A stretch of 64,000 nt of DNA from a virus (Duplodnaviria > Heunggongvirae > Uroviricota > Caudoviricetes): positions 58,023 through 122,022 of the IMG/VR virus record IMGVR_UViG_3300031994_000017; one strand, given 5' to 3'. The notes beneath the pieces were generated by a model, which worked only from the letters and a program-made list of their open reading frames with translations, did no database searches and was not told where the DNA came from. The position numbers and the translations under genes were made by a program. Shown here piece by piece: positions 1 to 44,841 of the stretch (positions are counted from its first letter, which is position 1; each line of letters starts with the position of its first letter).

Positions 1-382
1 CAGTCTTTCCAACAAGCGGAATACCAATTGCCGCGATAAAAGACTCAAAATTAGTAGATTTTGCTGCTTCAATTGAATTGAGAATGCGGTCAACTGACTT
101 TATGCCAAAGCCAGGAAGTTGTTTCCATTCTTCTTCATGTTCTTTTAGATGAAAAATATCCGCAAAACTATTAATCCAACCTTTATCAATTAGTTTTTCA
201 AGAGTCGCCTTAGAGATACCTTTAATATCTAAGCCTTTTTTGCCGCAGAAGTGTTCAATTTTATTTAACCATTTCCCTTCGCAATCGGGATTAGTACAGT
301 AAAGTTGTTCTGACTCATTAATTGCGGTAGGCTGGCCACAAATCGGACAAGTTTTTGGAATTTCAAAATAAATTTTATTCAT
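1..382 (-). CDS. ligA: C-terminal fragment of an NAD-dependent DNA ligase (Zn-finger CxxC...CxC plus HhH), partial at the window edge; a separate ORF with its own start and SD
   Basis: Translates to MNKIYFEIPKTCPICGQPTAINESEQLYCTNPDCEGKWLNKIEHFCGKKGLDIKGI...IGIPLVG. The Zn-ribbon and helix-hairpin-helix pattern matches the LigA C-terminal domains. Confidence 0.6.
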   Translation of the reverse strand, partial: MNKIYFEIPKTCPICGQPTAINESEQLYCTNPDCEGKWLNKIEHFCGKKGLDIKGISKATLEKLIDKGWINSFADIFHLKEHEEEWKQLPGFGIKSVDRILNSIEAAKSTNFESFIAAIGIPLVGKT

Positions 383-989
383 CATCTACATATCTCCAAT
401 GTAATTTTCCGCAGGTTTTTCGCTAACCTCTACATACCATACAAATTTTAGACTAAGTAGTGTTTGGATTCTATCGGGCAGCTTCTGAAGCACTTTCATA
501 GATTATACCAGTTTCAATACACTAAACTTTTCTTTTTCTTGCTTCAGTTGCTTTTTGAGCATTTATTTTTCGCATCTTAGCCATCTCTTCTGGATGTTCT
601 TTTTGCCATTTAAGCATATCTGCTGCTCGAGCAAGACCAAATTCTGGATGCTATTTTTGCCATTCTAAAGCTGCTGGTAAAGCATTTGGAGAGATTGAAT
701 GAAAACCGCCTCGATTTATATTATATCCTTTTTGAGGATCTCTAGCTTCATACAATTCTATATAATAATCTTCTTTTTCAGAAATTAAATTGGGTTCCCA
801 ATCTCCTTCTTCTAAAATAATATGTTCAAAATTATTCCAACCATATTTTTTAATAGCTTGAGTAAAATGCTAATTTTCTTTATAACCATGTCCATTTGCC
901 CATCTATCATTTGGTTTTTTTTGAGTTGTATACCCAATATACACCTTATTATTTATTTTGTTTTTATGCATATAAATAAAACAATACAT
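375..989 (-). mobile_element. GIY-YIG homing endonuclease with a C-terminal NUMOD-like DNA-binding motif, inserted between the two ligA segments; contains 3 in-frame TAG codons
   Basis: Starts MYCFIYMHKNKINNKVYIGYT and contains NINRGG (GIY-YIG). The C-terminal GIIYESASEAAR resembles a NUMOD helix. It has its own SD (AAGGAG). The reading frame is only open if TAG is sense. Confidence 0.55.
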
Positions 990-1058
990 ATTTATCACTC
1001 CTTCTATGTAATATAATTTTTGGAATAATCATATTACATAGAATTGTCCCAAAAATGT

Positions 1059-2174
1059 TTATTCTTTTTCAGCTTTAACAACTTGAGGAATGATAGCATT
1101 TTGTTTACATACCCAAATTTTTTGACCCCGATAAGGTTTTTCACCTAAAAGTTCTCTCATAATATTAAGATTATGAAGACTTGCCCTCTCAATAATACTA
1201 TCACCGTCATCTACTGGTTCAAAAACAGCCACAGGAGTCAGAATACCGGTTCTTCCCATAGACCATTCAATATTAAATAATCTAGTTTCAAATTCTTCAT
1301 CATAGAATTTGTAAGCAATAGCATTTTTAAAATGGTGGTCAGTTTCACCTAGAGAATTACCATAAGAGATATTATCAAACTTAAATACTAGACCGTCAAT
1401 AGGATAACCTTCTTGTTTACAAAGATCTTGAATATCTTTAACCGCATAAGCAAGATTTTCTTGAATCCAAGGGACAACTTCAAAACCCAATTGCGCTAGA
1501 GTAATAAGTCTTCGTTTAAAAGAATTATTATTTTCTATATCGCCTTTAATTAAGTCCCAAGCGATAAAAGTTAAATTCCGAGCAGCACATTCTTTACTAT
1601 TTAACAATCTGATACTTCCAGAAGCAAAATTACGAGGATTTTTATATTGTCCAGAAAAAGGTTCAAAATTTTTGTAAGTACAAATAACTTCTCCATCTAC
1701 GATTGTTTCATTCAAATTTGAAATTTTCTTAGGAATAGAAGGAATTACCATAGCATTATGTGTAATATCTTCTCCAATTAACCCATTACCGCGTGTTTCG
1801 GCTTTGATTAATTCACCATTAAGATAAATCAATGAACAAGTTAAACCATCCATTTTTGCCATGGCGACAAAATCTTTATTACCTAAAAAACTTTCAATTT
1901 CATCTATACTCTTGGTTTTATCTAAAGATAACATTTTATGATTATGTTTTGACTTCTTTAGGTTATTGACTGTTGTATAAACAATATTATGGGTGGGGGA
2001 ATTGGGATAATAAATACCTGTTTTTTGTTCAAGTTGTTCTAATTTAAAATATAAATCATCCCATTCTTTGTCGCTAATGGTAGGATGTCCTTCATCATAC
2101 TCTTTAGTCCTATCATTCAGATATTTAATTAGTTGCGGAATGTAATTTGCATCTGAAATATCAAAATCAAACAT
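1059..2174 (-). CDS. ligA: N-terminal adenylation and OB domains of an NAD-dependent DNA ligase
   Basis: Motifs KMDGL (KxDG) and ETRGNG in the 371-aa ORF; stop is TAA. Confidence 0.7.
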   Translation of the reverse strand: MFDFDISDANYIPQLIKYLNDRTKEYDEGHPTISDKEWDDLYFKLEQLEQKTGIYYPNSPTHNIVYTTVNNLKKSKHNHKMLSLDKTKSIDEIESFLGNKDFVAMAKMDGLTCSLIYLNGELIKAETRGNGLIGEDITHNAMVIPSIPKKISNLNETIVDGEVICTYKNFEPFSGQYKNPRNFASGSIRLLNSKECAARNLTFIAWDLIKGDIENNNSFKRRLITLAQLGFEVVPWIQENLAYAVKDIQDLCKQEGYPIDGLVFKFDNISYGNSLGETDHHFKNAIAYKFYDEEFETRLFNIEWSMGRTGILTPVAVFEPVDDGDSIIERASLHNLNIMRELLGEKPYRGQKIWVCKQNAIIPQVVKAEKE

Positions 2175-2185
2175 ATTTTATCCTC

Positions 2186-2240
2186 TTTTTCTTTTCTTAT
2201 ATATATTATACAATATTTTTTTTAAAAAGTCAAATTTGGT
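2186..2240 (-). promoter_or_regulatory. Conserved phage promoter motif (copy 1) upstream of the ligA N-terminal ORF
   Basis: Minus-strand TTGACTTTTTAAAAAAATATTGTATAATATATATAAGAAAAG; -35 TTGACT and -10 TATAAT. Confidence 0.5.
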
Positions 2241-2304
2241 CCAAAAGAAAGAAAAATAGTGTATAAACTTTCATATATTAAAAAGAGGAAAGGAGAATAT
2301 TCTC

Positions 2305-2490
2305 ATGCCCATTATTTCAAAAGTGAAACTTCCTAATATAACTACACCTTATGATATTGGCGTAAATTGGGAAAATGTTAAAGATAAACCAAATGTGGGT
2401 GGAGTTGATGTTAGCGTGAGTGATGAGGATTTAAAAATAAAAACAAATAATAATATATTATTAGAAAGTGCCGAGGAGGTAAGTTTCTAA
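2305..2490 (+). CDS. Small hypothetical protein upstream of the plus-strand fiber gene
   Basis: 61-aa ORF with AGGAG SD. Confidence 0.4.
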   Translation: MPIISKVKLPNITTPYDIGVNWENVKDKPNVGGVDVSVSDEDLKIKTNNNILLESAEEVSF

Positions 2491-2492: not shown

Positions 2493-4439
2493 ATGAGTGA
2501 ATTATATAGTATTAAAGAAGAAACTTTAACAAGTATAGCAAATGCGATACGTAGCAAAAATGGTAGTTCTGATACTTATACGCCTGGCGAAATGGCAGAT
2601 GCTATTGCGGCGATTAGTAGTGGAAGCGTAGAACATCTGTCGTGGCATTAGTGTCCAGAGCTGGTGCGGAATTATCTGGTGGCAGCAGCCGCGGCATATC
2701 CAACTGCGGCAGCAGATTTTACTGTTATCAATGAAAATGATTATGGTGAAGTAATGTATCAAAACATCCCCGACGCTGTAAGCAATGCAAACTCAAAACC
2801 AATTGGATATACTATTGATGGCATTACGTTTTATAACAATGAACCTGGTGTAGCAACGCCTTTTGCTACAACAAACAAAGCTGGGACATTAATGGCTTTA
2901 GATTGGCTCAGATGGTATAATACGACATTGGCACCTAAGGCGGAAGGAAGCTAGTATCCGCGTGGAAAGAATTGTAGAGATCTTGGTGGTTGGGCTTGTG
3001 ATGGTGGTACAATTAAATATGGGATGCTCGTGCGCGGCTCTGAGCCAAATCCTGCCGATAAAGATTTAATGGTCAACAAAATTGGCATCAAGACTGAAGT
3101 TCAGCTCCTACCGGTCTCGGAACAAGGCACGAATTACAAAATGAAATCTCCATGGGGCATTGATTGGGCAGGAAATGACACAGAGGCTAGTTCTGTTTAC
3201 AGCATTACCGACAGCAAAGTGCTTTGGAAGAAGCTCCTCGAACCTATCATGGATTCTGTTATTCACAGCAAACCAGTTTACTTTCATTGTGGTGTTGGCG
3301 CAGATCGCACTGGTGTTATAGCTATGATGCTAGAAGGACTGCTTGGGGTAAGCAGAGCTAATGTAGATATGGATTTTGAACTTACGAATTTTGCGCTTGG
3401 ATGGAAAATAATTAATGGTAATGTATATCGTTCTAGAGCATACCCTACATATCAAAGTATGATGACGGCTTGGATGAGTGACAGTTCTAATCCTCTAGTT
3501 GGGGGATTAACAGATAGTTTTCGTAATCGCTGTATCTCTCATGTTTTGTCTTGCGGTATTAAAATTGATAAAATCAACGCTTTTCGTGCGGCAATGATTG
3601 ATGGAAACCCTGAGACGATCACCATTACAGTACCAGCTTACACAATCAGCAAGAGTGGAATTAATATCAATTTTGATAATCAAATTTCGTCTGTAAATGA
3701 AAATGACTCGTATAGCGTAGGTGTGACTCCGGCAAGCGGCTATGTGATTTCTGATGTCTCCATAACGATGGGTGGCGTGGACATCACGAGTCAGGTGTTC
3801 AGCGGAACTCCAACCACGCGCCGCGTCCGTGTAACAAACAATCTGGTAAACTGCTCCACGTCCAACAGCGCAAAAGTGGTTGAGACTGGAACGGCATATG
3901 CGGCTACGATCACCGCTGACGAAGGGTACACGCTTGATGGAGCAATAATAACTATTACAATGGGAGGAACTAGCATGAGTCAATATTATTCAAATGGTAC
4001 AATCAATATTCCTGCTGTGACTGGTGATGTTGTTATCAGCATTTCAGCGGTTGAATCTGTTCGGGAGAATCTATTTGATCCTACTAACGCACAATATAAT
4101 AAGAGAATCAGTTATAGTAGCGGCACAGAAAGAGACAAGACTGGCGGTTTGGTCACAAATATGATTGATATTACTAACATTAACACGCTTACTGTTGAAG
4201 GAATCACCGAGCTGGCATTGTTTGAATCCCTTTATGCTTTGGAAGCATACTATTCAACAGGCACGTTTGGTCAAGGATACCTTGGATACAGATCATCTAC
4301 GAGTGCTACATATGTTTTTGATGTCGCATCTTACAAAGCAGAGTATCCTACCGCTACGCACATTGCGCTCTACTTCGGTATCTCGACTGAAGCAATCTCG
4401 GCGGCAAATGTGGCAGATCTTGCTATTTATGGTAGCTAA
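2493..4439 (+). CDS. Tail-fiber or receptor-binding-like protein. It has an N-terminal anchor module shared with the 14195..16081 paralog, a Cys-based phosphatase domain (HCGVGADRTG, CX5R) and Ig-like repeats. It contains 2 in-frame TAG codons.
   Basis: ATG at 2493 after a GAGGAGG SD. Two in-frame TAG codons are read through. The N-terminus ETLTSIANAIRSKNGSSDTYTPGEMADAIAAIS parallels SNLTAIANAIRAKNGLSASYTPAQMPAAIGEIS of 14195..16081. The GC content is elevated. Confidence 0.5.
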
Positions 4440-4486: not shown

Positions 4487-4520
4487 TGAAAAGACGAGTC
4501 TTTAAAGACTCGTCTTTTTT
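4487..4520. terminator. Bidirectional intrinsic terminator between the convergent fiber gene and the topoisomerase gene
   Basis: AAGACGAGTC-TTTAAA-GACTCGTCTT perfect hairpin flanked by T/A runs. Confidence 0.6.
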
Positions 4521-6880
4521 TATATCTTACTTACTGATAAAATACGATTATCCTTTATAATAATATTACCTTGTGCCATGCGTCCTACTTGAGGAATTTC
4601 TTCAGCTTTTATACATAGACTATTATTATTACCAATAGCTAGTAAAGTATCGCTATTATTTACTATGGCCGCATCTTTTACATAATCATTATCATTTAAT
4701 TTACAGATTATTAAACCTTTACCGCCTCGGCTTTGTACCATTAGTTCATTTGTATTAGTCCTTTTGCCCATGCCTTCATAGGTAAAAACCGCCAAATCAT
4801 CATTTTTATCTCTAATAGGAAGAGCTTTTACAACTTGGTCATCATCTTTCAAAGTAATTCCTTTTAAACCAATAGTTGTTCTACCACTAGCAGGAATAGT
4901 TAAGCTGTTAAGTCTAAGCGCCATACCCTTTTTAGTTAAAATAACTACATCCTCATCATTCACTAAGAAAGCTGAAGCAATATTATCTCCTTCTTTAAGG
5001 TTAATAGCGGCCAAACCGGTCTTTTTCCGCGTCTTAGTATATTCTTCAAGACTAGTCTTTTTAGTAATTCCATTTCTAGTAACAAACATAACATACTTAG
5101 CGTTAGTATCTCGGTAAATAGAATAAATAGTAACAGGATATTCACCTGTTTCCATTTCAATTAAAGCATTTACCGGCATACCCTTAGAAGTATTATTGCC
5201 TTCTGGAATTTCATTTACGATAAGACGATACATATTACCCTTATTGGTAAATACCATAAGTTTGTCTACGGTATTAGTGCGCAACACCATATTTGTAATA
5301 TCATCTTTTGTTTTTACACCTTTAGTATTGCGGCGTTGGGTCCGGAAGGCGGAAATGGGAATACGCTTAATAAGACCGCTTTCACTCAAAATTACGACGC
5401 ATTTTTCAGGTTCAATATTTGCGATTTCTTTATCTTCATCTTTTGGTTCGGCAATTTGAGTTAATTCAGTTCTGCGAGGACGGCCATATTTCTTACCAAA
5501 GGTAATTAAACGTGTTAAGAAAATACTTTCTCGTTCTTGAACGCTATTTATAACTTTTAAAGCATTAGTTATTTTTTGCTCTAATTCAGCTTTTTCCTCA
5601 TTTAGTTCAATACTCTCTAGGTGCGCCAATCTACCTAACTTCATATCAACAATTGCTTTAGCTTGTTTTTCAGTGAAGTTATATTGTTGTTTTAATTTAA
5701 TAACTGCATCACTAGAACTATTAGATTTCTTAATGAGCGCAATGATATTATCTATATCTTCTAGGGCTTTAAGAAGACCATCAACAATTTCTTTGCGATT
5801 AAGCATTTTATTATAATCAAAAGAATATTCTTTCAAGATGCAATTAATGTTATGTTCAATATATATGTCTAAATATTCTTTTAAATTAAGAAGTTTAGGA
5901 GTTTTACCCACCAAAGCATACTGATTTGCATTAAAACTTTTCTGCAAATCAGTATTTTTATACAGAGCATTTAAGATTTTATGAATGTTTCCTTCACATT
6001 CAATTTCAATTAAAAGCTGTTTTTTATCACTTTTATTAGTTACATTGATAATACCAGGAATAGTATCTTCAATAGCCAGTTTTTTAATTTCCTCTATCAA
6101 TGGTTCTATATAAACTTGATAAGGTACTTCGGTAATTAGAATTTTATCTTTTTGTATTTCTGCCTTTGCGCGCAAAACGACTTTACCCTTGCCAGTTTCA
6201 TAAATAGACTTTAAATTATCTTTATTTATAATAATTCCACCAGTAGGAAAGTCTGGGGCCAAATTAGAATAATTTAGTTTTTTTGTTTCTACGTATTCTT
6301 TAATAACCGCGATTAACTCATTTAAGTTACTGGGCAACCATACATTTGCGATTGTACTACCGATTCCTTGGCAACCATTAATCATAAGTCGCGGAAAGAT
6401 AGCTGGTAAAACTACCGGCCATTCAGCATCTTCAGAGAAATTCTGTTTCATTGGGACATTATTTTTATTAATACCAACAAACATACCTTCTTCTGTTGAT
6501 TTGGCCAATCTAGCTTCTGTATATCTATCAGCGGCTGGTTCTCCGCTAATTTGGATAGAACCATTTGCTCCATGCCAATCTACTTCTGGAAGATTATTAA
6601 TCCAAGGCTGAGACATTCTCGCAAATGTTTCATAAACAGCTACGTTACCATGCGGCCACCAAGTTGCGATAGTTCCGCCGCTAATCTTAGCACTTTTTAC
6701 ATGAGGCTTATTGCTAGTATAACCTTTTGAATACATTTCCCAAAGACAAGCCCGTTGTCCAGGCTTAAGTCCGTCTCTCGCATCAGCAAAAGCTCTTTGG
6801 CAGTTTGCTTCATAAGAAAAATCCAAAAAGTTTTGACCTAATTCTTTATTAATATCAATCATTTTCATTAGCCTCCTCAC
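4520..6880 (-). CDS. Type II DNA topoisomerase, large (GyrA/ParC/T4 gp52-like) subunit
   Basis: DGLKPGQRACLWEM (compare GyrA DGLKPVHRRVL); 786 aa. Confidence 0.7.
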   Translation of the reverse strand: MRRLMKMIDINKELGQNFLDFSYEANCQRAFADARDGLKPGQRACLWEMYSKGYTSNKPHVKSAKISGGTIATWWPHGNVAVYETFARMSQPWINNLPEVDWHGANGSIQISGEPAADRYTEARLAKSTEEGMFVGINKNNVPMKQNFSEDAEWPVVLPAIFPRLMINGCQGIGSTIANVWLPSNLNELIAVIKEYVETKKLNYSNLAPDFPTGGIIINKDNLKSIYETGKGKVVLRAKAEIQKDKILITEVPYQVYIEPLIEEIKKLAIEDTIPGIINVTNKSDKKQLLIEIECEGNIHKILNALYKNTDLQKSFNANQYALVGKTPKLLNLKEYLDIYIEHNINCILKEYSFDYNKMLNRKEIVDGLLKALEDIDNIIALIKKSNSSSDAVIKLKQQYNFTEKQAKAIVDMKLGRLAHLESIELNEEKAELEQKITNALKVINSVQERESIFLTRLITFGKKYGRPRRTELTQIAEPKDEDKEIANIEPEKCVVILSESGLIKRIPISAFRTQRRNTKGVKTKDDITNMVLRTNTVDKLMVFTNKGNMYRLIVNEIPEGNNTSKGMPVNALIEMETGEYPVTIYSIYRDTNAKYVMFVTRNGITKKTSLEEYTKTRKKTGLAAINLKEGDNIASAFLVNDEDVVILTKKGMALRLNSLTIPASGRTTIGLKGITLKDDDQVVKALPIRDKNDDLAVFTYEGMGKRTNTNELMVQSRGGKGLIICKLNDNDYVKDAAIVNNSDTLLAIGNNNSLCIKAEEIPQVGRMAQGNIIIKDNRILSVSKI

Positions 6881-8762
6881 TGTGCGCTAAAAGATAAGCT
6901 CGTCTAGGTGGAACAGAAGGACCCAATAGACATTCAATCAAATTCTCAGTTTCTTTTATATCATTAACAACAAGTTGGGCAATATTACGAGTCTCAGGAT
7001 TTAGGAGCGCATCAGCAAGCTCTTCTGCGTCACTCTCGCCAAGGCCCTTGTTTCTGTTTATAAGATATTTTTCATTTTTATGAGCTTCTTTGTATTCTTC
7101 TAGTGCTTTATTATCTTTTAAAAAGATATATTGATTTTTCTTAGTGGTAATACGGAAAAGAGGTGGCATAGTTGTATAAACATGACCATTTAAAATTAAC
7201 TCTGGGCAAATCCACCAAAAGAACTCAATAAGTAAGTTACGAATAGCAGAACCATCAGCATCAGCATCAGCGCATAAAAGAATTTTTCCGTAACGTAATT
7301 TTTTGGTGTCATAAATAAGTTTATTAGTTTTAGGATTTAATTCAAGTCCTAATGCCTTAATAATATTTATTACTTCTTGATTTGCGAAAATCTTTTCACT
7401 ACTATTTTTATATGTTGAAATTAATTTTCCTCTAATAGGAAATACAGCATGAATTTCTGCTGTACGTGCTTCTACTAGTCCGGATGCGGCAGAGTCACCC
7501 TCCGCAATTAATAGCTCACATTTACTTCTATCCTTACCCCAACAGTCTACTAATTTGGTAGGAAGATTAAGTAATTTGTTTTTATTTCCTTTAAGTTCTT
7601 TATCTCTAACCGCGTTTCTAGCTTTTGCAGCAGCTTCACGAGCCTTTTTCGCCATTTTAGCTTTATCTGCAATAATTTTAATTTCTTTTTCATTCGCGGC
7701 CAACCATATGCGCAGCTCTTCAGCAATTGCCGCTGTATATGGCGTCATTTCAAGCTTCGTTACGCGCGTTTTTACCTGCGCATCATAGCCAACATTAGGA
7801 GCAGTAATATTAAATACAATATATAATCCTTCTTGAATATCTTCGCCAGAAAGATTATCTTCTCCCTCTTTAAGCCACTTTTTATCTTTAAAGAATTTAT
7901 TAAATTCTCTTGTCAAAAGAGATTTAATTTGAGTAATATGCGGACCAACGCTTGTGAGACCGGTATTGACATATGGAACCATAGTCATCGCATAGTTTGA
8001 GGTATATGTCATTACCATATCAATTTTATTTTTGCCATTAGCAAACTTTAAATCAAAGCGATGGTCAATTAATTCTTTACCTTTAACCGCTTCATCTACC
8101 AAATCATTTAATCCGTTTTTAGAAAAGTATGTTGTCTTTTCTCCATTGTTATTTAATTCAATAGTAAGACCAGGGCAAAGACATGAAACTGTCTTGAACA
8201 GGGCTTTCAGTTCACTTACATTTACTTCTGGATGTGTAAAAAATTCTTCACTTGGCTGCCAACATACTTCTGTTCCATCTGGTAGAGTAGTTTTTTCAGA
8301 CCAGCGTTTTTCAAATTCTCCCTCTTTAAAACGGATTTGTTCGCTATCACCATTACGATAAGTTTTAACAACTAACCAATGAGAAAGGAATGTTGTAATC
8401 TTTGAACCAATGCCAAAAGAACCAAGAGATGTACCTTCATATGTTCCATCTTCTCTATATTTACCCGAAGTATTTAATACACTAAAAGCGGCTTCAAGAA
8501 TAGTTTTTCCATCTTCTCTAAAAGAATTAGGAATAAAACCTTGACCGTAATCCCTTAAACGGCATTTTGTTCCTTCAATTTCAACTTCAATTTTATTTCC
8601 ATGCCCTAATCTAAATTCATCTACGGCATTAGAGAAAATTTCTACCAAAAGTTGAGTGGAATAGGTTGTGTCGCCCGCATAAACGCCTGGCCGCAAACGA
8701 GTAAATTCTAGTGGAGAAAGTGATTCAATTGATTTTTCATTATATAATGTTTTATCTGTCAT
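6855..8762 (-). CDS. Type II DNA topoisomerase, ATPase/Toprim (GyrB/ParE/T4 gp39-like) subunit
   Basis: GHKL-like N-terminus (EIFSNAVDE) and Toprim (LLIAEGDSAASG). Confidence 0.7.
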   Translation of the reverse strand: MTDKTLYNEKSIESLSPLEFTRLRPGVYAGDTTYSTQLLVEIFSNAVDEFRLGHGNKIEVEIEGTKCRLRDYGQGFIPNSFREDGKTILEAAFSVLNTSGKYREDGTYEGTSLGSFGIGSKITTFLSHWLVVKTYRNGDSEQIRFKEGEFEKRWSEKTTLPDGTEVCWQPSEEFFTHPEVNVSELKALFKTVSCLCPGLTIELNNNGEKTTYFSKNGLNDLVDEAVKGKELIDHRFDLKFANGKNKIDMVMTYTSNYAMTMVPYVNTGLTSVGPHITQIKSLLTREFNKFFKDKKWLKEGEDNLSGEDIQEGLYIVFNITAPNVGYDAQVKTRVTKLEMTPYTAAIAEELRIWLAANEKEIKIIADKAKMAKKAREAAAKARNAVRDKELKGNKNKLLNLPTKLVDCWGKDRSKCELLIAEGDSAASGLVEARTAEIHAVFPIRGKLISTYKNSSEKIFANQEVINIIKALGLELNPKTNKLIYDTKKLRYGKILLCADADADGSAIRNLLIEFFWWICPELILNGHVYTTMPPLFRITTKKNQYIFLKDNKALEEYKEAHKNEKYLINRNKGLGESDAEELADALLNPETRNIAQLVVNDIKETENLIECLLGPSVPPRRAYLLAHSEEANEND

Positions 8763-9399: not shown

Positions 9400-10713
9400 T
9401 TACATTTTATTTGCTATTTCCGCGATTTTACTTCTATGAATTTGATTTAGTTCAATTTCACCATAAATATCTTCGCCTCTAAAAATTTTAGAAGCTCGAT
9501 ACATACCATTCTTTATACCTTCATAATTAGTTAAATCAACCTAGCTTTTTATATCACCATCTAGAATAAAAATAACATCTTCTCCTGCGCGCTATAATGC
9601 TAATTTTAATAATTCAACATCTAAATTTTGCGCTTCGGTAATATAAATACCGGCATTCATTCCAGAAGTATCATATCCTCTAATATCACTTATAGGCAAT
9701 AATATTAATTTTTCATTGTTTATTAACTATTCTACAATTAATTTACTACCTAATTTGCTTGCTAAAAAGTTGCCTATTTGAGAATCTAAAAGTTTAGCAT
9801 CTTTACTGCCTGGGTAAAAGCCAAGCTTGGCCGCATTTTTAGTCGCTACTGGATTACAAAAGATAATTATTTTATCTATTTTATTTTTTTCTAATAAATA
9901 GAATAAATAACCAATAGCCAAATAAGATTTACCTGTGCCCGCAGGCCCTTTTATCATTGTTATTTGGTTATTTAATAAGCTATCTGCTACCATAGCTTGA
10001 TAAATATCATCTTTATAAGGTTTAATTTCTCCTAATTGTTTAGAGCAAAAACTTTTGTATTTTAATGGACGAAAAGAATTTCCTAACCAGCATAAAGTAT
10101 CTACTCTATTTTTAGTTTGAGTTTCATAAATATTTAAATATTGATTTACTTTTAATTTTAAATCTTGCCCAAGTTTTTCTGGATAAGAATAAAAGTCAGC
10201 CATTTCTTCCTCATTAAGGTAAGCATCAATATATCCTTTATAATCATCTTTGATTTTTTCGCTTTTTACATTTTCTTTACCAAAGAATTGTTGAGCGATT
10301 ATTTTTAAAGCCAAATCATTAGTATAAAAAACACATTTTTCATCCCAATGAGTTTGTAAATAATTATAAGCTGCGGCAAGTATTTTACTATCATTATTTA
10401 TTTCAATATTTAAATCATGAAGCCAATTTTCAAAATTAGTTTTATAAATAATACAAGTATATTTATCAGGATTTTCATCTAATTGATGTAGTAGCTACTA
10501 TGCTTTACTTTTAATACTTGAATCTTTGTTTGCGGAAGTTTTTATATTTTCTAATTCTTTTAATGAAATATTTGTAATAACTATTTTGTCATTGGTATCA
10601 AAAATTTCTTCTGCTTTAATTAATAAGCTACTTGTGTCATATATTTTAGTCATTTTCATATTCTTCTCCTTCTTGCGGTATAGTAAAACCAATTGCGGAT
10701 ACATTATTTTCAA
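9400..10713 (-). CDS. phoH: PhoH2-like protein (PIN domain plus PhoH ATPase) with at least 6 in-frame TAG codons, including a TAG-TAG tandem
   Basis: The N-terminal PIN shows KIYDTSSLL and SLKELENIK. The Walker A is GPAGTGKS. The C-terminal ILDGDIKS[TAG]VDLT aligns with the conserved PhoH GD-x-TQ-I/V-DL motif (recalled from memory), placing TAG at a Gln. The true stop is TAA at 9400. Confidence 0.6.
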
Positions 10714-11764: not shown

Positions 11765-12880
11765 TTATTTTTTTTCAGTATAATCAAGGCAAATCCAACC
11801 AGCGCCAGATTTTAATTTGCCCCAATTATCCTTTTTATCAACAATAGTATATACACCATTTTTATAAATAACAGTTTTAACGCTATAATTGGCGCCTGGG
11901 CCGCTGCGGACATTAAGTGCGTTCGCGGTTACACGGATTACATAGGGGTCAAAAGCAGGGGCAGGTGGTTGCGTGCTGGCCGCAGCTTTAGTGAGATATT
12001 TTGTATTAATAGGGCTACTAATTGAACTCTTTTGGTCTTCTGATTTATCAATAACAGCTCTATCACCTTTAATAGATTTAATATACCATTTTTTAGCTAA
12101 TACCCATGAAGGAATTGCTTTTCCGTTGTAATAAGTTGCGCCAGATTTGATATCAACTAAATCGCCAGCCTTAAATTCTTCGGTAGTTGGGGGAGTCGGC
12201 GGTTCAGGCTCTTTTGCGGCTGGAGGAGTAGTTGCTTTTAAAATCGCAGAAACGTCTGCCCGCACATTGTTCATATCTTTATTGTATTTATTAAACCAAC
12301 TATAAATATCAGTGTGCGCGCCTCCAAGACCTAACTTATAGCTATCCCAGTGGCAAAGAATGGTAGGAACTTGAACGCCCTTATACTATACTGTGCCATT
12401 TGGATCAATATTAAACATATTACATAAATAGGCAGTTATTTCACAAGCTTCTTTATAAGCCTTATTAAAATAGTCCTAGCTTGTGTAGCCGTCATCACAG
12501 ATTTCAAACTAGATCCAAAATGGTCCACCAGTAGAACCATTACAACTACCTTTAGGTCCTGAGCCGCAGCCCCAAGGACGATAATTCCAAGGCATTGTTT
12601 GAACAGTGGTTATAGTTCCATCCGCCAGTTTACCAACCCAGCAGTTAAGACCAGCAGAGTGATGAATATGATTCCAATCATTCTTATAAGCATTTTTACC
12701 TAATAATTGAAGTAATTGAGCTTTATTTGCCGCATTATCATCTGGTTGAACATATCTGCGAAGTTCTGGGTTTCCACCAGCGGTATCATGCCAAAGAATG
12801 CCTACGGGTGTGCCTTTTGTGGTACCTTTATAGCAAGTACTCTATGTCATCATACAAACTAGAGGTTTATTATTTGTATT
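11765..12880 (-). CDS. Endolysin: an N-terminal catalytic domain that uses TAG codons, plus C-terminal tandem SH3b cell-wall-binding domains
   Basis: The C-terminus has KAGDLVDIKSGATYYNGKAIPSWV and VIRVTANALNVRSGPGANYSVKTVIYKNGVYTIVD (SH3-like). The N-terminus MKYNTNNK...GILWHDTAGGN... has a GGAGG SD at 12880 and 4 in-frame TAG codons. Confidence 0.55.
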
Positions 12881-12897
12881 ATATTTCATAAAAAATC

Positions 12898-14194: not shown

Positions 14195-16081
14195 TTATGT
14201 GATTACTTCATTGATCGTGATGGTCCAATTTGCGCCGGACCCATAGCCCGCGATGCGCAGTAGCGGTCGGTTATTTACTGATTTCAGTGGCATATTATCA
14301 GGCGTCAGCGTCCATGTCATATTGCCGCTCGCATCAAAAGCGATTGTTCCATAGTTGGTGGATGTACCCTCCGTGAGATAACCGCCGCCAACAAAGGTCT
14401 CATCCGTATGGTAACAGCACCACGTTGCGTTGCTGTGTGTAGACTTTCGCATATCCACACCGCTCGTGCGGATGACAACAGTCTCGCCCTTGTCCACCCA
14501 CGGCGTCAGATCGATGAAGCCGGAGGTCGTGTAGCCAGTGGCAGCAGAAAGTGTGCCTTTGCTTGTGGACAGGCGATAGCCGTCTGTGTAGCCGATTGTG
14601 TTGATAAGGTTGGTATAACCACTCGTCACACAGGAAATCGTGATGTTCCCGGTCACATTTGCGATGGAGATTGTTCCATTATTGTATGCCGTCGCAGAGA
14701 TGTCCACGCCTCCCATTAAGACGGTCACGCTGCCGATGGTGTAGCCACTCGGAACGGTCAGTGTTGCGCTGTAGGTCTGGCCCTCTTCGATAGATGTCGC
14801 CATGTTAGAGATCTCCGCCTTGCCAAGGCTGTTGATCGTAATCGTGTATTGTGCCGTCACGTAGTTATAGGTCCGGTCATAGCCGGCGCCGTAATGGTCT
14901 GCGTATATGACACCGCGATCCAGGTCGATGCTCACCACGACAAAGGCCGTGTCCTGTCCGGAGTCAGCGGTCTTGTTGTAAGTAGTTGTTTCGCCGAACT
15001 CGACGCCATTAGATTCTGTTCCGCTATTGCGGCCATATTCGTTATTGCGTCCGAAGCAGACATTTGGTACCGCCAGTCGGACCACATCCATCTCACCCTC
15101 GTCGATGGCGCCACCAGAGTATCCGATGGCGTGGAGCTTGCCCATGAGGTAATTGTGAGTGTGCCCATGAATCTGCGCGATGAGCTTAGCACTGTTTTTC
15201 CCGGAAAAATTGTAGCTTATTGTTATTCCGTCATAAGCCAGTGAGACAGCGCTGCCGTTTAAGTATGCCTTGATTATCTGAGACACGCGGAAGGTCTGCC
15301 AGTCGATTGGGTGGTGACAGCAGATAATCACTCCCCAATTAGCTGCGTCGCTCTTGCTACCAACCTCGCCGAGCCGGTCGGCAAACCACTGTAGCTGCCT
15401 GCCGCTGATCCACAGGTCCTTCGATTGCGTGTCCGCTGTCGTCTCGGCGCTGTTAAGGCAGATCACCCGGATTTGCTTGGATACAAAGTCCTGATAGCAG
15501 TATCCGCCCTTGAGATTTTGCGGATCGACCGTGCCGGTGCTATAGACGCCGACCAGGTTATACATCTCGTCCCGATAGATCGGCGTGTGACCACCGAGGT
15601 CTGAGGAAAAGTGTAGATTATCATGGTTGCCAACACTATGGAACTGCGGCAGACTTCCGAAGGCGTCCGCGAGGTTGGCATGCATCTGCCTAATCTCCGC
15701 AACGCCGTTATCATAGGTTGTGTTGCTGCCGCCGGCGGTGGCATCTCCTAACCACATGCAGCAGTCGATCTCCAGTGCCCGGCGCAACAGGCTGGCCGCT
15801 TGTCCAGCGTGCTTTGCTGAGGTAACAAGCTGCGCGTTAGTGCGGTCGATGTGACTATCTGATAGCGCAAGAATGCGGAAACCATTCACGATCCCGTGGC
15901 TACTGACCTGATTGGCCACCCGGAGCGCCTCCTGTACCACATAACTGTCCGGATAGCTGCTGATCTCCCCGATCGCCGCCGGCATCTGCGCCGGGGTATA
16001 GGATGCGCTTAACCCGTTCTTCGCTCGAATCGCGTTGGCAATCGCGGTGAGGTTAGATTCTGTTATTAAAGCTTGACTCAT
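14195..16081 (-). CDS. Receptor-binding or tail-fiber paralog with a calcineurin-like metallophosphoesterase domain and Ig-like repeats; GC-elevated
   Basis: ILALSDSHID, GDATAGG, GNHDN and GHTHNY metallophosphoesterase motifs. The N-terminus is shared with the 2493..4439 protein. The repeat TLTVPSGYTIGSVTVLMGGVDIS resembles SVGVTPASGYVISDVSITMGGVDIT. Confidence 0.55.
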   Translation of the reverse strand: MSQALITESNLTAIANAIRAKNGLSASYTPAQMPAAIGEISSYPDSYVVQEALRVANQVSSHGIVNGFRILALSDSHIDRTNAQLVTSAKHAGQAASLLRRALEIDCCMWLGDATAGGSNTTYDNGVAEIRQMHANLADAFGSLPQFHSVGNHDNLHFSSDLGGHTPIYRDEMYNLVGVYSTGTVDPQNLKGGYCYQDFVSKQIRVICLNSAETTADTQSKDLWISGRQLQWFADRLGEVGSKSDAANWGVIICCHHPIDWQTFRVSQIIKAYLNGSAVSLAYDGITISYNFSGKNSAKLIAQIHGHTHNYLMGKLHAIGYSGGAIDEGEMDVVRLAVPNVCFGRNNEYGRNSGTESNGVEFGETTTYNKTADSGQDTAFVVVSIDLDRGVIYADHYGAGYDRTYNYVTAQYTITINSLGKAEISNMATSIEEGQTYSATLTVPSGYTIGSVTVLMGGVDISATAYNNGTISIANVTGNITISCVTSGYTNLINTIGYTDGYRLSTSKGTLSAATGYTTSGFIDLTPWVDKGETVVIRTSGVDMRKSTHSNATWCCYHTDETFVGGGYLTEGTSTNYGTIAFDASGNMTWTLTPDNMPLKSVNNRPLLRIAGYGSGANWTITINEVIT

Positions 16082-16102: not shown

Positions 16103-18688
16103 TTAATAACTTGTAGTATTAGCATTAGCCATGGGAACCCAATTAATTTTTAAATTATTGGTAGAACCATTTTGACTAATTTCAAACTACCCATAAGATA
16201 AGCCTGTGTCTTCATCCTAATAATTAAAATTAAAATATATTTTTTCTATGTCAGTATCTACAAAATAAGAATTTAATCTACCTCTGTTGTATCCGCCATC
16301 ATTAATAATTAATGAAATATTATCACAATTGTCAGCAGCATTCTCAAGTGTGCTCCATGTTACAGCGGGAGTATATGAAAGAGTAGCTGTTGTGAAAGGA
16401 TTAGACGTTATTGTCAATTCTAACTAAGTAGTTACTGCTTTATTGTCTATAAACAATTCATTAGATGATGGATTATAGGTTAATGATGAAGCTTTGTTCA
16501 CAGTAGCAGTTACAGCTGTTGTAGCAGTTGTACCACCCAATAATATTGGATAATTACCACTAGTTGTAATTGCCGCGGCTTGCGTAACTTGATGATCACC
16601 AGTTGGTATAGTCCATGATCCAGAATTATTTAAGAAGTAAGTAGAAGAAGAACCAAAAGCTGGGCCAGCTTTTACCATATTACTATCGCTATTGTCAGTA
16701 ATTAAAATACGGTCACTAGAAGCAACTGTTACAGTAGTTGTTACAGCGCCAGCATTAGTGATATTACCATGAGTATGCTCGTAAGTAGCAGCTCCTCCTG
16801 AAGAACCAAGAGTCATAATACCAGGAGAATCAGTAGTAGCTGTTGGTGGTGTGTAATTTAATGATAGATGACCATCTATTAGTGTAAACTATTCACTAAC
16901 ACTTTCGATAAAATTAAAATTTTTAATATAAATAGTTAATATATGATCTTCACCATTATATATAGCTGCTTGTCCCTAAAAGAAACTTGAAGCTATTTGT
17001 TGAGCAAAACCAATAGTACCAGGAATAAGCATAAAAGATCCCATAGTTACGGTACTTTTAGGATAAAATAAAATTTCTGAAGGATAAAATAAAATTTCTG
17101 AATCAGTAAAATCATATACTGCTATATAATAACTTAATATTTCTTGGTTAATAAAACTCTAAGGTACATTATTATAGGTCAGAGTAGTTACACCATTTTT
17201 AGTAATTATTGTGGGAGGTCCATAATCATTTAAATTTATATGATGTATTAGTGTCTCATTTCCAAGTTCTTCCCAAGTATTACCATTCCATACAAATTCA
17301 GTCTAGCTATTATCAGCGCTATTATATTGTAAATATACATCACCAGCATCACCTAAATACTCACTACCTATAACACTACTTGCCGCATTCTCAGTTCCGC
17401 CATCAGTAATGGTCTATTGGGCAGAACCTTTAAAGTGCATTGCTCCTGTGGTAGCACCAATTTCATAGATGTCTGTTATGGTAGCGATACAGTATTCTGA
17501 ATTTTCAGATTGCGTTACTAAAAAAGTAATTAATTTATTTTTATAAATCCCTTGAAATGAAATACTGGTTCCATTTATTCCAATAGGAAGAATAGGAAAA
17601 GAATCAACTATTTCATTTGCCTATGAATCATCAACTAATACTCCTACTATATAAGTCTAAGCTCCCTCCAAACAAAAACCAATTAATTGACTATAAGATA
17701 TTTCACTACGAGATGTAAAATTCACTACGGCAAAAGTGTTATTTATAGAAAGTGAAAAAGGATAAGAAACTACTCTTATAAACTCTACAAGTTTTGCATC
17801 ATAATTGGTAAAAGCATTACTTATTTGACTATTGACCCAACTAATATTAGGTATTATATCTCCGCTAGAATCATCAGTAGGAGTGGGAGCCGTTGGGGCT
17901 CCAGTAAACGCAGGGCTTGCTACTGGCGCTCTACTTGTGTCAGTTGGGTGAACATGGTCTGCTCTAGCATATTCGGTTGAAGTACCAATAGCGCCTGTAC
18001 CATCCATAACGGGAGTAGTTGTAGCAAAACCACGATTTCCATTATAGATACCAACAATATGATATTGCGTGCTATACATCATAATAACAACATCATTAGG
18101 TTTGATTAAATTAGTGGGGCAAGCAGCACCATTCCAATAAATCGCTTTAGCGCCTTTACTATTTATATTTAAGGTTGGATTTGCGGCCGTATTACCATTG
18201 GTAAATTTAATTGCGCAAATACCATGAGCAACTAAAGCATATGATGACATTGAAACAGTTTTTGCGGCTGTGCCTACTGCGGTACTACAAGTTCCATAGC
18301 ATTGACCTTGTGCTACATTATTTGTATAACCAGAGGAATTATAGCCATAATACATCATCCAACAGCCGCCAGAGATTCTAGTGCTATCATATACAAATAA
18401 CATTGTATAAGCTGTATTAAATGTAGTAGTTACTGCGCTGGCGTTGGCCATACTATTATAAATGGGTTTAGCGCCCAAACCATTGACATTTAAAGTACAA
18501 CCAGAAGCAGAAGTTACTTTACCATTTTTGATAAAGCAGCAAACACCATCTCGCAACTCTTTAATGCCAGGAACAGTGGCGGTAAAGGCTGTTGAAGTTG
18601 AAGTGCTGTCAACAGTGCCGGACGGAATAGCCACTGCCCGCACACCATATTCTTGTTCATTAACTTCTATATTACTTATAAAAGCCAT
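16103..18688 (-). CDS. Tail fiber protein (about 860 aa) with many in-frame TAG codons
   Basis: The start MAFISNIEVNEQEYGVRAVAIP has an AAAGGAG SD. An internal module MHFKGSAQ[TAG]TITDGGTENAA...GDAGDVYLQ...EFVWNG is shared with 19924..21170. The frame is continuous through ORFs 17657..18688, 16424..16816 and 16217..16417 to a TAA at 16103. Confidence 0.55.
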
Positions 18689-22222: not shown

Positions 22223-22373
22223 AAATTAATTTTGACCAAAAAAATTCTTACGTATTAATCTATTCAATATGATTCTAATTATTAAAATAATACCATATAA
22301 GTTGTTTAACCTAAGGATTATAACTATCATCAAAATCATAATAATTAAATACTATTCCTATATTATTAATAGA

Positions 22374-25300
22374 ATCAATTATGCTCTAAGTTAAAGATCC
22401 ACCAATTATGGTTTTGCCTCCAAAATCTCCATCAATAAATTTTAAAGTTATAGAACCTCTTTTTTGGAGAATTTCTTTTGCTAAAAGAAGATCATTTTCT
22501 GTAATAGAATCATATAAATCTTCTCCTATCTTTTTCTCATATTCATAACTATTATATAAAGGTCTCCAATAAAATTCAAAAATATTATTATTATCATTTG
22601 ATATTTTATAAACGAAAGTGGGTGTTGATGAATCAGATCTAAAACCTGCTCCGTCCGGGGAGTTCAGCTGAAAAACATCATTAGAAGGTGATAATATCAA
22701 AGAACCATCTTTATAATTTTTTCTACTTTCAGTTTTATTGGTAGAGTTAAAAATATATTCACCCACATCACTATCATAAGTAATAGTTTCATAATCCATT
22801 AAATAACGCATATTTGGTGCGTTTATTTTATTTTTGACGGAAGTATTTAAATCAGATAAAGGAATTCCGCCAGAAGGCTTAACATAAGCATTATCTATTT
22901 TTGTCTATAAACTATTATCTAAATCATTATAAGAAATTATTTTATTACTCAAGTCTCCAATTTTTGTGGTAACAACATAATCAGATTGAATTTCTCCTAC
23001 TTGATAGAAAGACTAATTACAAATAATAACATCATTTACCGCAGGAATAGCATTACCCGCAAAAGGATATGGCAATGAAGTTAAATCAAAAACATAAGTA
23101 TCATCACCATAACGTCCACCAGAAGAAGGATTGCGACTTGACAATAATATTTTAAAGGAATTAAGTTTGTCAACTACATTACTAGCTAATTGAACTTCGC
23201 TAATTGAACCTTCTGGAATAATAATGCGTGTAGGATCAAACTCTATTGAAGAACCATCTTCTATATTGATAGTAAATGGTAATGAAGTAATAGGAATTGC
23301 ATCTATTCCAATAGGACATTGTAAATTAGTCAATAATCTATATCTTAAATCTTTTAAATATTCTACATCATTTTCGTTTTTGCGATAATTGTAAATGGTG
23401 TCAATATCTAAATTAGGATATTCTTCTTTAAGTAATTTCAACCATTCGATTAAAGAAGAACAAGTTTCCAATAATTCCGCATGGTTATTTTCCGCGTAAC
23501 TACTACCATTCCAAATGTAAGGATATTGAATTTCATCAGAACTTTCATCTTTCTTAAAATGATATAATTTGAAATCATCCCCATCATGTAAGCCCGCGTT
23601 CTTTAATTCTGTGATTAAAATATCTCTTAGAACAACATCATGCATTAATAAAGTTCTATTAGATGTGGCATTGCGCGCTAAATAACAAGCAAAATTAATA
23701 AAAATTTCTCTACCTTCTGGATAGTCTTTAAAAATATCATAAAGATAAGGAGCTGAAGTAGTTTGATATAAATTAAAGAAATTATTCTCCGTACTTAAAA
23801 CAAAATCACCTGGTATCATATGATTTAATTGTTTAAAACGAATTTCAGTTCTTAAACTATTATTCACTTCACTACTGGAAATTTTTTCTTGTATTACTTT
23901 TGGTAATAAATACAAAGTATTAAATACTAATTTAGTTTTATCTTGCTCATTGTTTAAAATATTATTTTGATATTTTTTGAGCTGTTCAATATAATCACTT
24001 AATCCATGGAAATAAGAGTCATTTAGGCCCTATTGAGACTATAAATATTCTATAAAACCAGGTAAAGCCGCAATCTTATTAATATTTTGATCTTGCTAAT
24101 TAGGAGATAAATAAGTAATATTATTTCCGCGGATGTAAGTTCCGCCAGCTCTAGTAGCACCATCAACCTCGTTGTTAATATAAGTTAAAACATCTTCGGT
24201 TAAGAAAGATTCGCGGCCAGAGCCATTTTCTGCGATAGTCTAAGGGCGGTAAACGCGTCTTAATTCTGAAGAATAAGGATTATATATATAATCATTTACT
24301 CTTGGGGTATTGTCATTATTATATCCTAAAAGTTTTTGATATACCTTTCCACCTGGATATTCTATGCCGCCAGAGTATAATAAATCTCCGCAGAACTACC
24401 AGATATTCCCGGTATTAATAGTTCCACGTTTAACGCAATGTAAAGCCATCGCTCCATGAGGATATTCTTTTACAATATTTTCACCATAAATTTCTTCATT
24501 TAAAATTGGAATATGGTAATAAATTCTAGGAGAGGCAATATTAATTACAGGTCTAAAAAGAGAACTTCCTTGCCAAACATTATTATTAAAAACCGCGGAA
24601 ATTTCTCCACCTTGCCCCAGATAAGTATTTAAATCACTAGTAATTCTTGGAATTTCGTTCTAATTAACAATATCTTCCGTTTTATCAGAGTCATAACTGA
24701 CATTGTATTTAGGATGAGTAGTATAATAAATTTTATTATTTTCTTCATTTAAATTGCCAGTTACCATATTTTCTCTTTTTATAAAATCAGATAGTTTATA
24801 ATCTGTGTTTCCAATTTTTCCGATTACAATATCTTTATTTTCTTGCATCATTAATTCGTAATGATTACGAATGGTAGTATGTCCACTTCCATTTACCAAT
24901 TCGCTATCAGCACCAGAAGCAACACTTTCATCTACTCCTGGGGTCATTGATTTTAGAATTAAATATAACGCATTAGCTTCATCTATAAAATATGTATGAG
25001 TTGCTTCTGGTTCATTTGGATCTGGATCACCAAAAGTTTTCTTTATTCTGTCCTAATACTCCCAATTATAAATTGTTTCTGGACGATATTGATTAGTATT
25101 ATTTTTATCTACCTATAAAGATAAGGCTGTATTGGCGGTAATTCCTTCACTATTTGCGGTAACTTCATAAATATTACCAGTAGAAGGCTAAAATAAAATT
25201 GCTCCAGACAAAGAACTGGTCTAAGAACCAATTTTTTCTGGAACAAAAGTTTCCCAAGGAAGAGCAACATATTCTACAAAAGCAGAAATAGAGCCTCCTA

Positions 25301-25982
25301 CTTGAGTATTATAAAGACCAGTTAATAATCTTTCTTTTTTTACATCTGCTTCTCCGCCGAATATTAAATTATAAGCAGCTGCGTCACTGGCATCAACTTT
25401 TTCTTCACAAACTTTCGCAAAATCAGCAAAATGCCATTTATTTTTTACCCAAGCATTAGTGGTATTTTTAAGAGCATTTTTATATTTTTTAATCCATTCT
25501 GGTTCATTTTTAAATAACTCTTCATAAGTGGTTTTCTTATAAATAACATCTTTATAATTAATATCTTCAAAATATTCTGAAAGAATTGGAATACCATATT
25601 CTTCTACTTTGGCCTATGGGGTTAAAATAAATAATTTACGTTTGCCATTAGCTATATCTGTAAAAGCTTGTTTAACCCAATTATCTTCTTGGTCTAAGAT
25701 AGTAAGTCCTTTTGCGCTAGTCGCCAAATTATTCAGCACATTAGCTATTTTTGCTTCTAGTATTCCATCGCCAAAGATATTAGTAATAGCAGTTTCTTGT
25801 TCTACAAGAGTTGGATTTTGTGAATTATAAGAAACATAATTTTCTTGTTCTAAGAAATCTCTTACGTCTTTAGCTACATAGTTTATCTATTCTTCTGTAA
25901 TAATAGCATTTTTTTCAAGTTCATATTGACTGTTGCCTTGATATAATTGCGGATTATTTTTATCGTAAACTATATCTGCCAT
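22374..25982 (-). CDS. Large virion or structural protein, about 1202 aa, in a single frame with about 16 in-frame TAG codons
   Basis: ATG at 25982 with GGAGG 9 nt upstream. The frame is continuous through ORFs 24660..24947, 23013..23915 and 22386..22811, which are separated only by TAG, to a TGA at 22374. Confidence 0.55.
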
Positions 25983-44056: not shown

Positions 44057-44787
44057 TCTATTACTAGATAACCAGATATTTTTTATTCAAAATATCTGAA
44101 AAACAATTTATTTTAGATAAATCAGTATAGGGAATTCTGTATAAAGGAATGTTATGAGATAAACAATAATCATTTTTTATTTTATCTCTCATTTGGTTCT
44201 TTGATAAATTAAAAAATCCTTCTTCAAAGTGCTATTTACCATCATATTCTATTAAATATTTTAAATTGTTATTTTCATCAAAAATAGCAAAATCAAAACG
44301 ACATAAATAACCTTTTTCTGTTTTACAATTCTAAAAACTGTATTCTTGTTTAAAAAGAATATTATTTTTTTGTAAAATAGAACTTATCTTTTTTTCACCA
44401 AAAGATTTAATACATCCACAACTTTTACTTTTTCCAGATAACAAAGAACCAATTTCAACATCTCGCTCTGTTCCGCAAGAACATTTACAATGCCAATAAT
44501 AAGAACCAGTAGAGGTTTTTTTATCTGTTCTATATAAAGCAATCCATTCTCCAAATTTCTAATTTGTAATATCTTTTGGCTAAAACTAATTTTTTATTGT
44601 AGTATTTTTTTTAATACAACCACAACTCTTAGTATTATTATTTTTTAAATTAGAACCTAAAACTTCAACTTTATTACCACAATCACACTAACATAACCAA
44701 TAATAACCATGTTTGGAGGATTTTGTTTTATATAAAACTTTTAATTTACCAAACTAACAATTTGCTAAATCTAATGTTTTAGGCATT
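44057..44787 (-). mobile_element. PD-(D/E)xK (DUF559/Vsr-like) putative homing endonuclease with two duplicated N-terminal DNA-binding modules; at least 6 in-frame TAG codons
   Basis: Repeats FGKLKVLYKT...YYWLC[TAG]CDCG and FGEWIALYRTD...YYWHCKCSCG. The C-terminus has YLCRFDFAIFDEN...LIEYDGK[TAG]HFEE. Confidence 0.4.
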
Positions 44788-44841
44788 ATTTTCCTCCTTT
44801 TTTCTATATATATTATATTAAAATTTTTTATAAAAATCAAA

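Follow-up and report, generated by a model that had tools for sequence, protein, structure and literature searches.

A GIY-YIG homing endonuclease gene between the two halves of a NAD-dependent DNA ligase gene in a TAG-recoded phage

The 64,000-nucleotide (nt) stretch of phage DNA analysed here (the window) covers positions 58,023 to 122,022 of IMG/VR virus record IMGVR_UViG_3300031994_000017 (Caudoviricetes), and carries at its left end the gene for a NAD-dependent DNA ligase (LigA) in two pieces, with a GIY-YIG homing endonuclease gene (HEG) between them. The best explanation of the whole arrangement, and one that we consider very likely, is that a free-standing HEG, accompanied by neither an intron nor an intein, has invaded the gene and given rise to a two-piece ligase. 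The HEG would have inserted in the short linker that joins the OB fold to the Zn finger (the OB/Zn linker) of the ligase gene of a large, TAG-recoded phage. The incoming cassette would supply the stop codon for the upstream half, and its 3' end the Shine-Dalgarno (SD) sequence and ATG for the downstream half, so that the ligase would be made as two polypeptides: LigN, with domain Ia, the nucleotidyltransferase (NTase) domain and the OB fold, and LigC, with the Zn finger, HhH and BRCT domains. These may reassemble non-covalently, probably around nicked DNA, in the manner of LigA/LigB of phage T5. The structural and evolutionary account of the locus is put forward with good confidence, and it is likely, judging from sequence features and from the T5 analogy, that LigN and LigC together form an active ligase.

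Organization of the split ligase locus

All three genes are on the minus strand. The LigN gene (2174-1059, with its TAA stop at 1059-1061) encodes 371 amino acids (aa), contains no TAG codons, and matches the Pfam families DNA_ligase_aden (E = 2.2e-45, above the cut-off) and DNA_ligase_OB (1.4e-17). Its AKMDG motif is in register with the KxDG motif of the adenylation domain in the LigA proteins of T5 and E. coli, and residues 1-69 align with domain Ia (…YDEGHPTISDKEWDDLY…) in relatives and in the E. coli enzyme, an assignment made by alignment only. Domain Ia, which binds nicotinamide mononucleotide, sets NAD-dependent ligases apart from ATP-dependent ones. The C-terminus of LigN, IIPQVVKAEKE, lies in the OB/Zn linker, with the stop 5 residues past IIPQVVKAE, the motif that closes the OB fold.

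LigC (385-1) runs off the window at position 1, with the first 128 of its ~275 codons inside; the remainder, including the BRCT domain, was read from a 100% identical IMG/VR contig (L001). There the ~275-aa protein shows the four Cys residues of the Zn finger and Pfam matches to HHH_5 (4e-14) and BRCT (3e-9); LigC is present in full length in record IMGVR_UViG_3300028805_000743. The Pfam match to DNA_ligase_ZBD is below the gathering score (E of 3e-4 to 9e-4), and the four Zn-finger Cys residues do not vary across 17 aligned relatives. The likeliest start of LigC is the ATG at 385-383, which overlaps the last codons of the HEG and is 8 nt past a GGAG Shine-Dalgarno sequence (397-394) that itself lies within the 3' end of the HEG open reading frame (ORF). 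This start is preferred over that at 382 because the ATG at 385 is kept in the related locus L086, where the ATG at 382 reads ATA; it places the first residue ~10 before the first Zn-finger Cys. Just before this start (386-391, minus strand) the LigC frame has ATG-TAG, making the series ATG TAG ATG ATG; if TAG is read as Gln, a slightly longer LigC (MQMMNK…) could be made late in infection, or in-frame read-through from upstream could occur. LigN and LigC sum to ~646 aa, the usual length of LigA, and the domain order OB fold, Cys4 Zn finger, HhH, BRCT is present, but spread over two polypeptides.

These results uphold much of an earlier, sequence-only reading of this DNA, which had placed the adenylation and OB domains in an ORF at 1059-2174 ending in TAA, a GIY-YIG gene at 375-989 between the ligase halves, and a Zn finger and HhH domains in a C-terminal ORF with its own SD. 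Profile searches confirm that the C-terminal ORF is related to LigA; its start, given as 382, is the part of that reading which has to be moved. Comparison with intact LigA orthologs, which had been suggested as a way of locating the breakpoint, puts it at the OB/Zn linker, and the linker is equal in length to those of intact relatives.

The spacing of the three genes is tight. There are 69 nt from the LigN stop to the HEG start at 989, which is preceded by a strong AGGAG, and 0 nt from the HEG to LigC, the HEG stop overlapping the LigC start. The 69-nt interval holds a perfect, AT-rich 17-bp hairpin (1002-1043, minus strand) between the LigN stop and the HEG SD (GGAG, 1001-998), with a predicted folding energy of -25.5 kcal/mol in a 101-nt context (z = -4.55); none of 200 shuffled sequences was equally stable. 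It is kept in L086, where a single C to U change retains a G-U pair, and is absent from the other split loci described below. A regulatory hairpin common to all inserts can be rejected, since only these two loci have one; here it may tune HEG translation or mRNA processing. A putative sigma-70-like promoter (2233-2205, minus strand; TTGACT-17-TATAAT), recognized by its 11/12 match to the consensus only, lies ~30 nt upstream of the LigN start, and no terminator-like site was found within 1-2400. To judge from this layout, LigN, the HEG and LigC are probably transcribed as one unit from that promoter.

Mobility of the endonuclease gene

The same site is occupied in L086, with the same stop/start overlap. 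Its LigN and LigC are 72% and 69% identical to ours at the aa level, and its HEG ~97%. At the nt level, identity is highest over the HEG (93-100%, with synonymous divergence, dS, of 0.28) and falls away on both sides: it is 82-88% (dS 0.58) over the last ~400 nt of LigN and 85-92% (dS 0.55) over the first ~170 nt of LigC, then 60-75% (dS 1.2-1.8) in the distal ligase and 60-70% further into LigC, where dS is as in the distal ligase. A near-identical HEG within diverged ligase genes, together with this outward decay of identity, indicates that the HEG moved after the phage backbones had separated and carried ligase flanks with it. On this sequence comparison, the HEG is horizontally mobile and its movement is accompanied by co-conversion. 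It would be active, or recently so, and would spread among co-infecting relatives by cutting HEG-less ligase alleles, presumably near the conserved block encoding IIPQ, 21-32 bp upstream of the LigN stop codon; recombinational repair would then copy the HEG in along with flanking ligase sequence. That the arrangement is an assembly artefact is rejected: it is seen in L001 (100% identical) and again in L086, an independent contig of a different metagenome.

Recurrent splits at one linker among relatives

Relatives were collected by two scans of IMG/VR. The first, with LigN, gave 80 loci; the second used an alignment-based LigC query and gave 533 relatives, 80 of which were kept. The alignment was needed, as a scan with the single LigC sequence returned only the same contig. 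Among the ~150 related phage contigs surveyed, most have one contiguous LigA of 596-676 aa, as do 71 of the 80 loci from the first scan. The remaining nine loci, representing seven lineages, stop after IIPQ[VI]xxAE[KR] and restart before (E)IPxxCPxCG. With two lineages added by the second scan (L086 and L136), there are nine split lineages in total, all divided at the OB/Zn linker, and four kinds of insert. A GIY-YIG HEG is found in our locus (and L001), L086, L012 and L071; a DUF2726-type HEG of ~310 aa in L004 and L021; an HNH-type HEG plus a 95-aa ORF in L136; and the 95-aa ORF alone in L027/28. In the ninth, L068, the 5 kb downstream of LigN contain no LigC.

Two of these loci have features of their own. 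L068 (IMGVR_UViG_3300026549_000001, 250 kb) has a LigN gene at 5001-6122 that ends at the same linker (…IIPQIVRAERKKNE), and its LigC may be elsewhere in the genome or lost. The ~95-aa ORF (L027:1297-1580, L028, and L136 at ~4700-4990) occurs in two separate lineages and has the pattern …RWA..G.L..KY…HY/W.DHNG.YE.Y.I.PWY..TTG…; no Pfam match was found for the L027 and L136 copies, and no PHROG match for the L027 copy.

In a neighbour-joining tree of LigA the split alleles are scattered, several of them beside intact sisters with 75-92% aa identity: L071 with L080 (92%), L004 with L009/10 (88%), L012 with L018 (87%) and L027 with L031 (75%). Each of these pairs is ~95% identical along the protein, and the drop is confined to a window of 50-80 aa around the junction. 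The junction-proximal sequence GQKIW..K.N.IIPQVVKAE[KR] is common to split alleles of different clades, a crossing of clade boundaries that again points to co-conversion, with the insert arriving together with donor flanks. There is no close cultured relative in the phage database, where a nucleotide search gave only short matches of 65-80% (the ligase of Clostridium phage c-st and assorted GIY-YIG genes).

Selection on the two ligase pieces

The flanks of our locus and L086 that were inherited in the split state show omega (dN/dS, the ratio of non-synonymous to synonymous divergence) of 0.16 in LigN and 0.13 in LigC. In pairs of split and intact sisters, omega is 0.07-0.17 for both halves, similar to that of pairs in which both members are intact. 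These values indicate that both pieces of the ligase are still under purifying selection.

They also bear on the possibility that the insertion killed the ligase, in which case LigN and LigC would be decaying remnants and the phage would use the LigA of its host. LigA closes around the nick as a single clamp for which every domain is required, and truncated LigA alone is not known to seal nicks. Decay is nevertheless improbable. In addition to the low omega of the flanks and of the split/intact sister comparisons, both halves are complete ORFs with intact KxDG, OB, Cys4, HhH and BRCT signatures, and both are retained across the nine split lineages (with the proviso that in L068 the 5 kb after LigN contain no LigC). 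T5-like phages retain this split too, and LigC is matched by ~1,090 phage-database records, many of which are from Demerecviridae.

Absence of an intron or intein

If the HEG were carried by a group I or group II intron, the 680-nt insert would be spliced out and a full-length LigA made. The sequence-only reading had left this open, proposing either a two-subunit ligase or an intron/HEG invasion and suggesting a search for group I structure around 382-1059. Many phage GIY-YIG HEGs are indeed intron-encoded, the best cultured-phage matches to ours include some annotated as intron-associated or intron-encoded endonucleases, a recoded intron endonuclease in an early gene has been reported by Borges et al., and there is the strong hairpin directly upstream of the HEG. 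However, no intron family was found by Rfam in window positions 1-2400 at E<=10, nor in seven split loci at E<=1, and permissive scans gave chance-level matches only (snoR72, mir-246, tRNA-Sec-like and others). With just 69 nt of non-coding sequence upstream of the HEG and none downstream, there is no room for a P3-P9 ribozyme core outside the coding sequence. LigN has its own stop, and LigC begins at a separate ATG with a separate SD throughout the split lineages; this SD is purine-rich and lies 6-9 nt ahead of the LigC ATG in every split relative. Furthermore, the halves are parted by unrelated ORFs in Vibrio phage River4 and by annotated promoters in T5, and in L068 no LigC follows within 5 kb. 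A group I or II intron is therefore rejected as very improbable, and the evidence favours a combination of the two options offered earlier, a free-standing HEG invasion giving a two-piece ligase.

An intein or split intein is likewise rejected, as there are zero extra residues at the break and no intein blocks. The linker of the closest intact type, IIPQVVRSEKSNTALTYIDIPAKCP (L005), is equal in length to ours, which reads IIPQVVKAEKE at the end of LigN and MMNKIYFEIPKTCP at the start of LigC, with nothing lost. Expressed from the junction outwards, KAEKE followed by MMNKIYFE has the same length as RSEKSNTALTYID in L005.

The GIY-YIG endonuclease and TAG recoding

The HEG (989-375, minus strand; 204 codons, TAA stop at 375-377) is of the I-TevI/Seg type. 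With TAG translated as Gln, it matches Pfam GIY-YIG at 4.7e-8, above the gathering score, and PHROG_314 ('homing endonuclease') over its full length at 8e-34. A phmmer comparison with the catalytic domain of I-TevI (1LN0/1MK0) gives 1e-5, with FIY, YIG, R, E and N of the catalytic site (Tyr, Tyr, Arg, Glu and Asn) in register. The C-terminal 50 aa match PHROG_4538 (1.9e-10) and PHROG_20162 (0.0045). For this module the Pfam matches to I-TevI_DNA-bd (E 0.033) and an I-HmuI NUMOD-like domain (E 0.057) are both under the cut-off, so that the earlier description of a GIY-YIG plus NUMOD protein is secure for its first part and sub-threshold for its second. Identity to any HEG in the phage database is <=36%.

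The reading frame is open to its TAA only with all six in-frame TAG codons (870-872, 651-653, 522-524, 471-473, 453-455 and 423-425) as sense codons; three had been counted previously. The window contains 31 tRNA genes (in an array at 45658-57799, minus strand), among them a suppressor tRNA with a CTA anticodon (46142-46218, minus strand; ARAGORN). At 54270-54345 in the array ARAGORN gave a tRNA whose anticodon has four bases ('ttgt'), which may be either an erroneous call or a tRNA of the frameshift type. Many of the window's long ORFs stay open only with TAG read-through and have 4-18 in-frame TAGs each; examples are the ORFs at 22248-25982 (1244 codons, 18 TAGs) and 16103-18688 (10 TAGs). 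There are no TAG codons in the ligase halves, or in gyrA and gyrB. Five of the six TAGs in the HEG are conserved in L086, and the one at codon 173 is CAA there, the single such substitution. The CTA tRNA and this exchange between orthologous HEGs indicate that TAG is a sense codon read as Gln, in agreement with the TAG to Gln code described in gut phages (PMC10607447, PMC9523058). Pairwise identity of the CTA tRNA to the other tRNAs of the window was uninformative on its identity. With six TAGs to be read, full-length endonuclease would be made only once the suppressor tRNA for Gln is active, and the TAG-free ligase halves could be translated at any time.

The possibility that the GIY-YIG ORF is a dead pseudogene and its six TAGs real stops has hardly any credibility. 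Under the standard code the ORF would end at codon 40, and the ligase halves on either side are TAG-free. Against this, the window encodes the CTA suppressor tRNA and many long conserved ORFs that need TAG read-through, and the catalytic residues align with those of I-TevI. Between the HEG and its L086 copy there are 24 synonymous and 7 non-synonymous codon differences (omega 0.05), which also occur past the TAGs; neither TAA nor TGA has appeared, and L086 has CAA in place of one TAG. An omega of 0.05 over the full 204 codons marks a working protein-coding gene rather than a pseudogene.

A second HEG-like gene (44061-44963, minus strand) encodes a DUF2726-type nuclease with Cys-rich repeats, an EYDGKQH motif and several in-frame TAGs, and is of the same family as the insert that splits LigA in L004 and L021. 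Both HEGs of the window are thus TAG-rich, compared with zero TAGs in the ligase and gyrase genes examined.

Function of the two ligase pieces

The case for a two-piece enzyme draws on the conserved motifs, the omega of 0.13-0.16 in the flanks, the recurrent splits at the same linker and the T5-like precedent. An alternative is that the halves have diverged in function, LigN acting alone (for example as an adenylyltransferase) and LigC as a separate DNA-binding/BRCT scaffold. Ia-NTase-OB fragments do self-adenylate unaided (PMC1684257), and L068 has a LigN without a nearby LigC. In our locus, on the other hand, the halves have remained adjacent and probably share a transcription unit, their evolutionary rates resemble those of intact LigA, and there are no extra domains or altered motifs at the new termini. 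Such divergence is as hard to credit as a dead endonuclease gene.

Several points weigh against the preferred account, in which HEG invasion produced a functional two-piece ligase. Ligase activity would depend on the reassembly of LigN and LigC, as C-terminally truncated LigA proteins are not known to seal nicks alone. Their Ia-NTase-OB portion can self-adenylate (PMC1684257). The activity of the endonuclease, its cut site and its late-only expression are features that we infer from the sequence. A very divergent intron could escape Rfam. Inheritance in the split state is clear for only ~195 codons of the flanks, and the dN/dS of the distal ligase may go back to evolution before the split. Finally, the nearest intact sister of our phage is only 56% identical, and the empty site of its lineage was not seen.

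Comparison with known systems

Phage T5 and other Demerecviridae have a split NAD+-dependent ligase, LigA/LigB (Wang et al. 2005, as cited in PMC1684257). In T5 (GenBank AY543070, T5.116/T5.117) ligA (323 aa) and ligB (259 aa) are annotated as subunits A and B of a NAD-dependent ligase. The division is at the same linker: the N-terminal piece of T5 ends in VIPCIVERVYD and the C-terminal piece begins MKIEIPTQCPSCG, where ours have IIPQVVKAEKE and MMNKIYFEIPKTCPICG. In both phages Ia-NTase-OB makes up the N piece and Zn-HhH-BRCT the C piece, encoded by adjacent, co-oriented genes within a replication gene cluster. In T5, however, the two are 200 bp apart, with annotated promoters but no HEG in between, and in Vibrio phage River4 (Demerecviridae) three other small ORFs lie there, whereas our locus retains its HEG, which is mobile. 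Our LigC is only ~27-30% identical to the T5-like proteins, the closest cultured relative of the ligase being that of Clostridium phage c-st (43%), and our split arose independently within a mostly intact clade.

HEG-made 'genes in pieces' are known from T4-like phages: nrdA with mobE in Aeh1, gp39/gp60 with mobA in T4, and gene 43 with a seg-like gene in Aeromonas phage 25 (PMC2988022; Friedrich et al. 2007). As in those cases, a free-standing HEG sits within an essential gene of DNA metabolism that relatives have in one piece, the pieces have separate translation signals, and two polypeptides must reassemble. The differences are that the host gene is LigA, that the HEG sits in a linker between domains and not in a region critical for function, that one site has been struck repeatedly by unrelated HEG families, and that reassembly is here deduced from sequence. 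The endonuclease itself resembles I-TevI and the Seg proteins in having an N-terminal GIY-YIG domain, a linker and a small C-terminal module (with weak DNA-binding matches), as well as in its co-conversion gradient; it differs in not being intron-encoded and in its six TAG sense codons.

A further parallel is found in the TGA-recoded 'Agate' phages, where an intron endonuclease in an early gene is preferentially recoded and has been proposed to be made only late (Borges et al., bioRxiv 10.1101/2021.08.26.457843). Common to both is a HEG rich in reassigned stops inside an otherwise unrecoded early or replication gene, for which late translation would be expected. Here, though, the reassignment is TAG to Gln and not TGA to Trp, and the HEG is free-standing and splits the gene, with no intron removal.

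Apart from the T5 split, no HEG-split LigA was found in the literature, of which the coverage searched was incomplete. HEG-made genes in pieces and a T5-type split LigA are already known, so a specialist would not be much surprised by this locus, and it does not overturn current understanding. Specific to it are a HEG still inside the LigA split, the independent recurrence at one linker via unrelated cassettes, and a TAG-recoded mobile gene in an unrecoded host gene.

Other genes in the window

The ORF at 2493-4439 (plus strand; 648 codons, 2 TAGs) encodes a tyrosine-phosphatase domain (Pfam Y_phosphatase3, 3.4e-19; HCGVGADRTG) followed by tail-fibre-like repeats. The ORF at 14195-16081 (minus strand) resembles it in the first ~45 residues, has 52% G+C against a background of ~32%, and gave no Pfam match. 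The two may represent receptor-binding modules that have been exchanged on a common N-terminal anchor. Next to the ligase region, on its downstream side, are gyrA-like (782 aa) and gyrB-like (635 aa) genes (4520-8762, minus strand), which overlap by 14 nt. Beyond them, 9400-10704 encodes a PhoH-PIN fusion (5 TAGs) and 11765-12889 an amidase-SH3 endolysin (4 TAGs). The SH3 endolysin, along with the c-st phage of Clostridium as source of the closest cultured ligase (43%), suggests a Gram-positive host.

Implications

A broader proposal, for which the odds seem to us slightly unfavourable, is that the OB/Zn linker of phage LigA is a general hot spot of gene fission for unrelated cassettes (GIY-YIG, DUF2726-type, HNH-type and the 95-aa ORF), that the ligase tolerates being made in two pieces, that the T5 split would be a fixed relic left after loss of the endonuclease, and that recoding would act as a timer confining the endonuclease to late infection, with the split early gene still open to translation. 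The relatives form a natural series that comprises intact alleles, alleles newly invaded by inserts of four kinds, and invaded alleles whose flanks are co-converted. Such a series could serve to define the endonuclease target, to study how a multi-domain clamp enzyme tolerates fission, and to design split ligases. The locus is also a clean case in which a mobile endonuclease gene uses the reassigned TAG and its host gene does not, and so bears on recoding as an expression timer. It offers, too, a plausible origin for the two-subunit NAD-dependent ligase of T5-like phages, whose annotation as a split enzyme dates back to 2005 (Wang et al. 2005, cited in PMC1684257).

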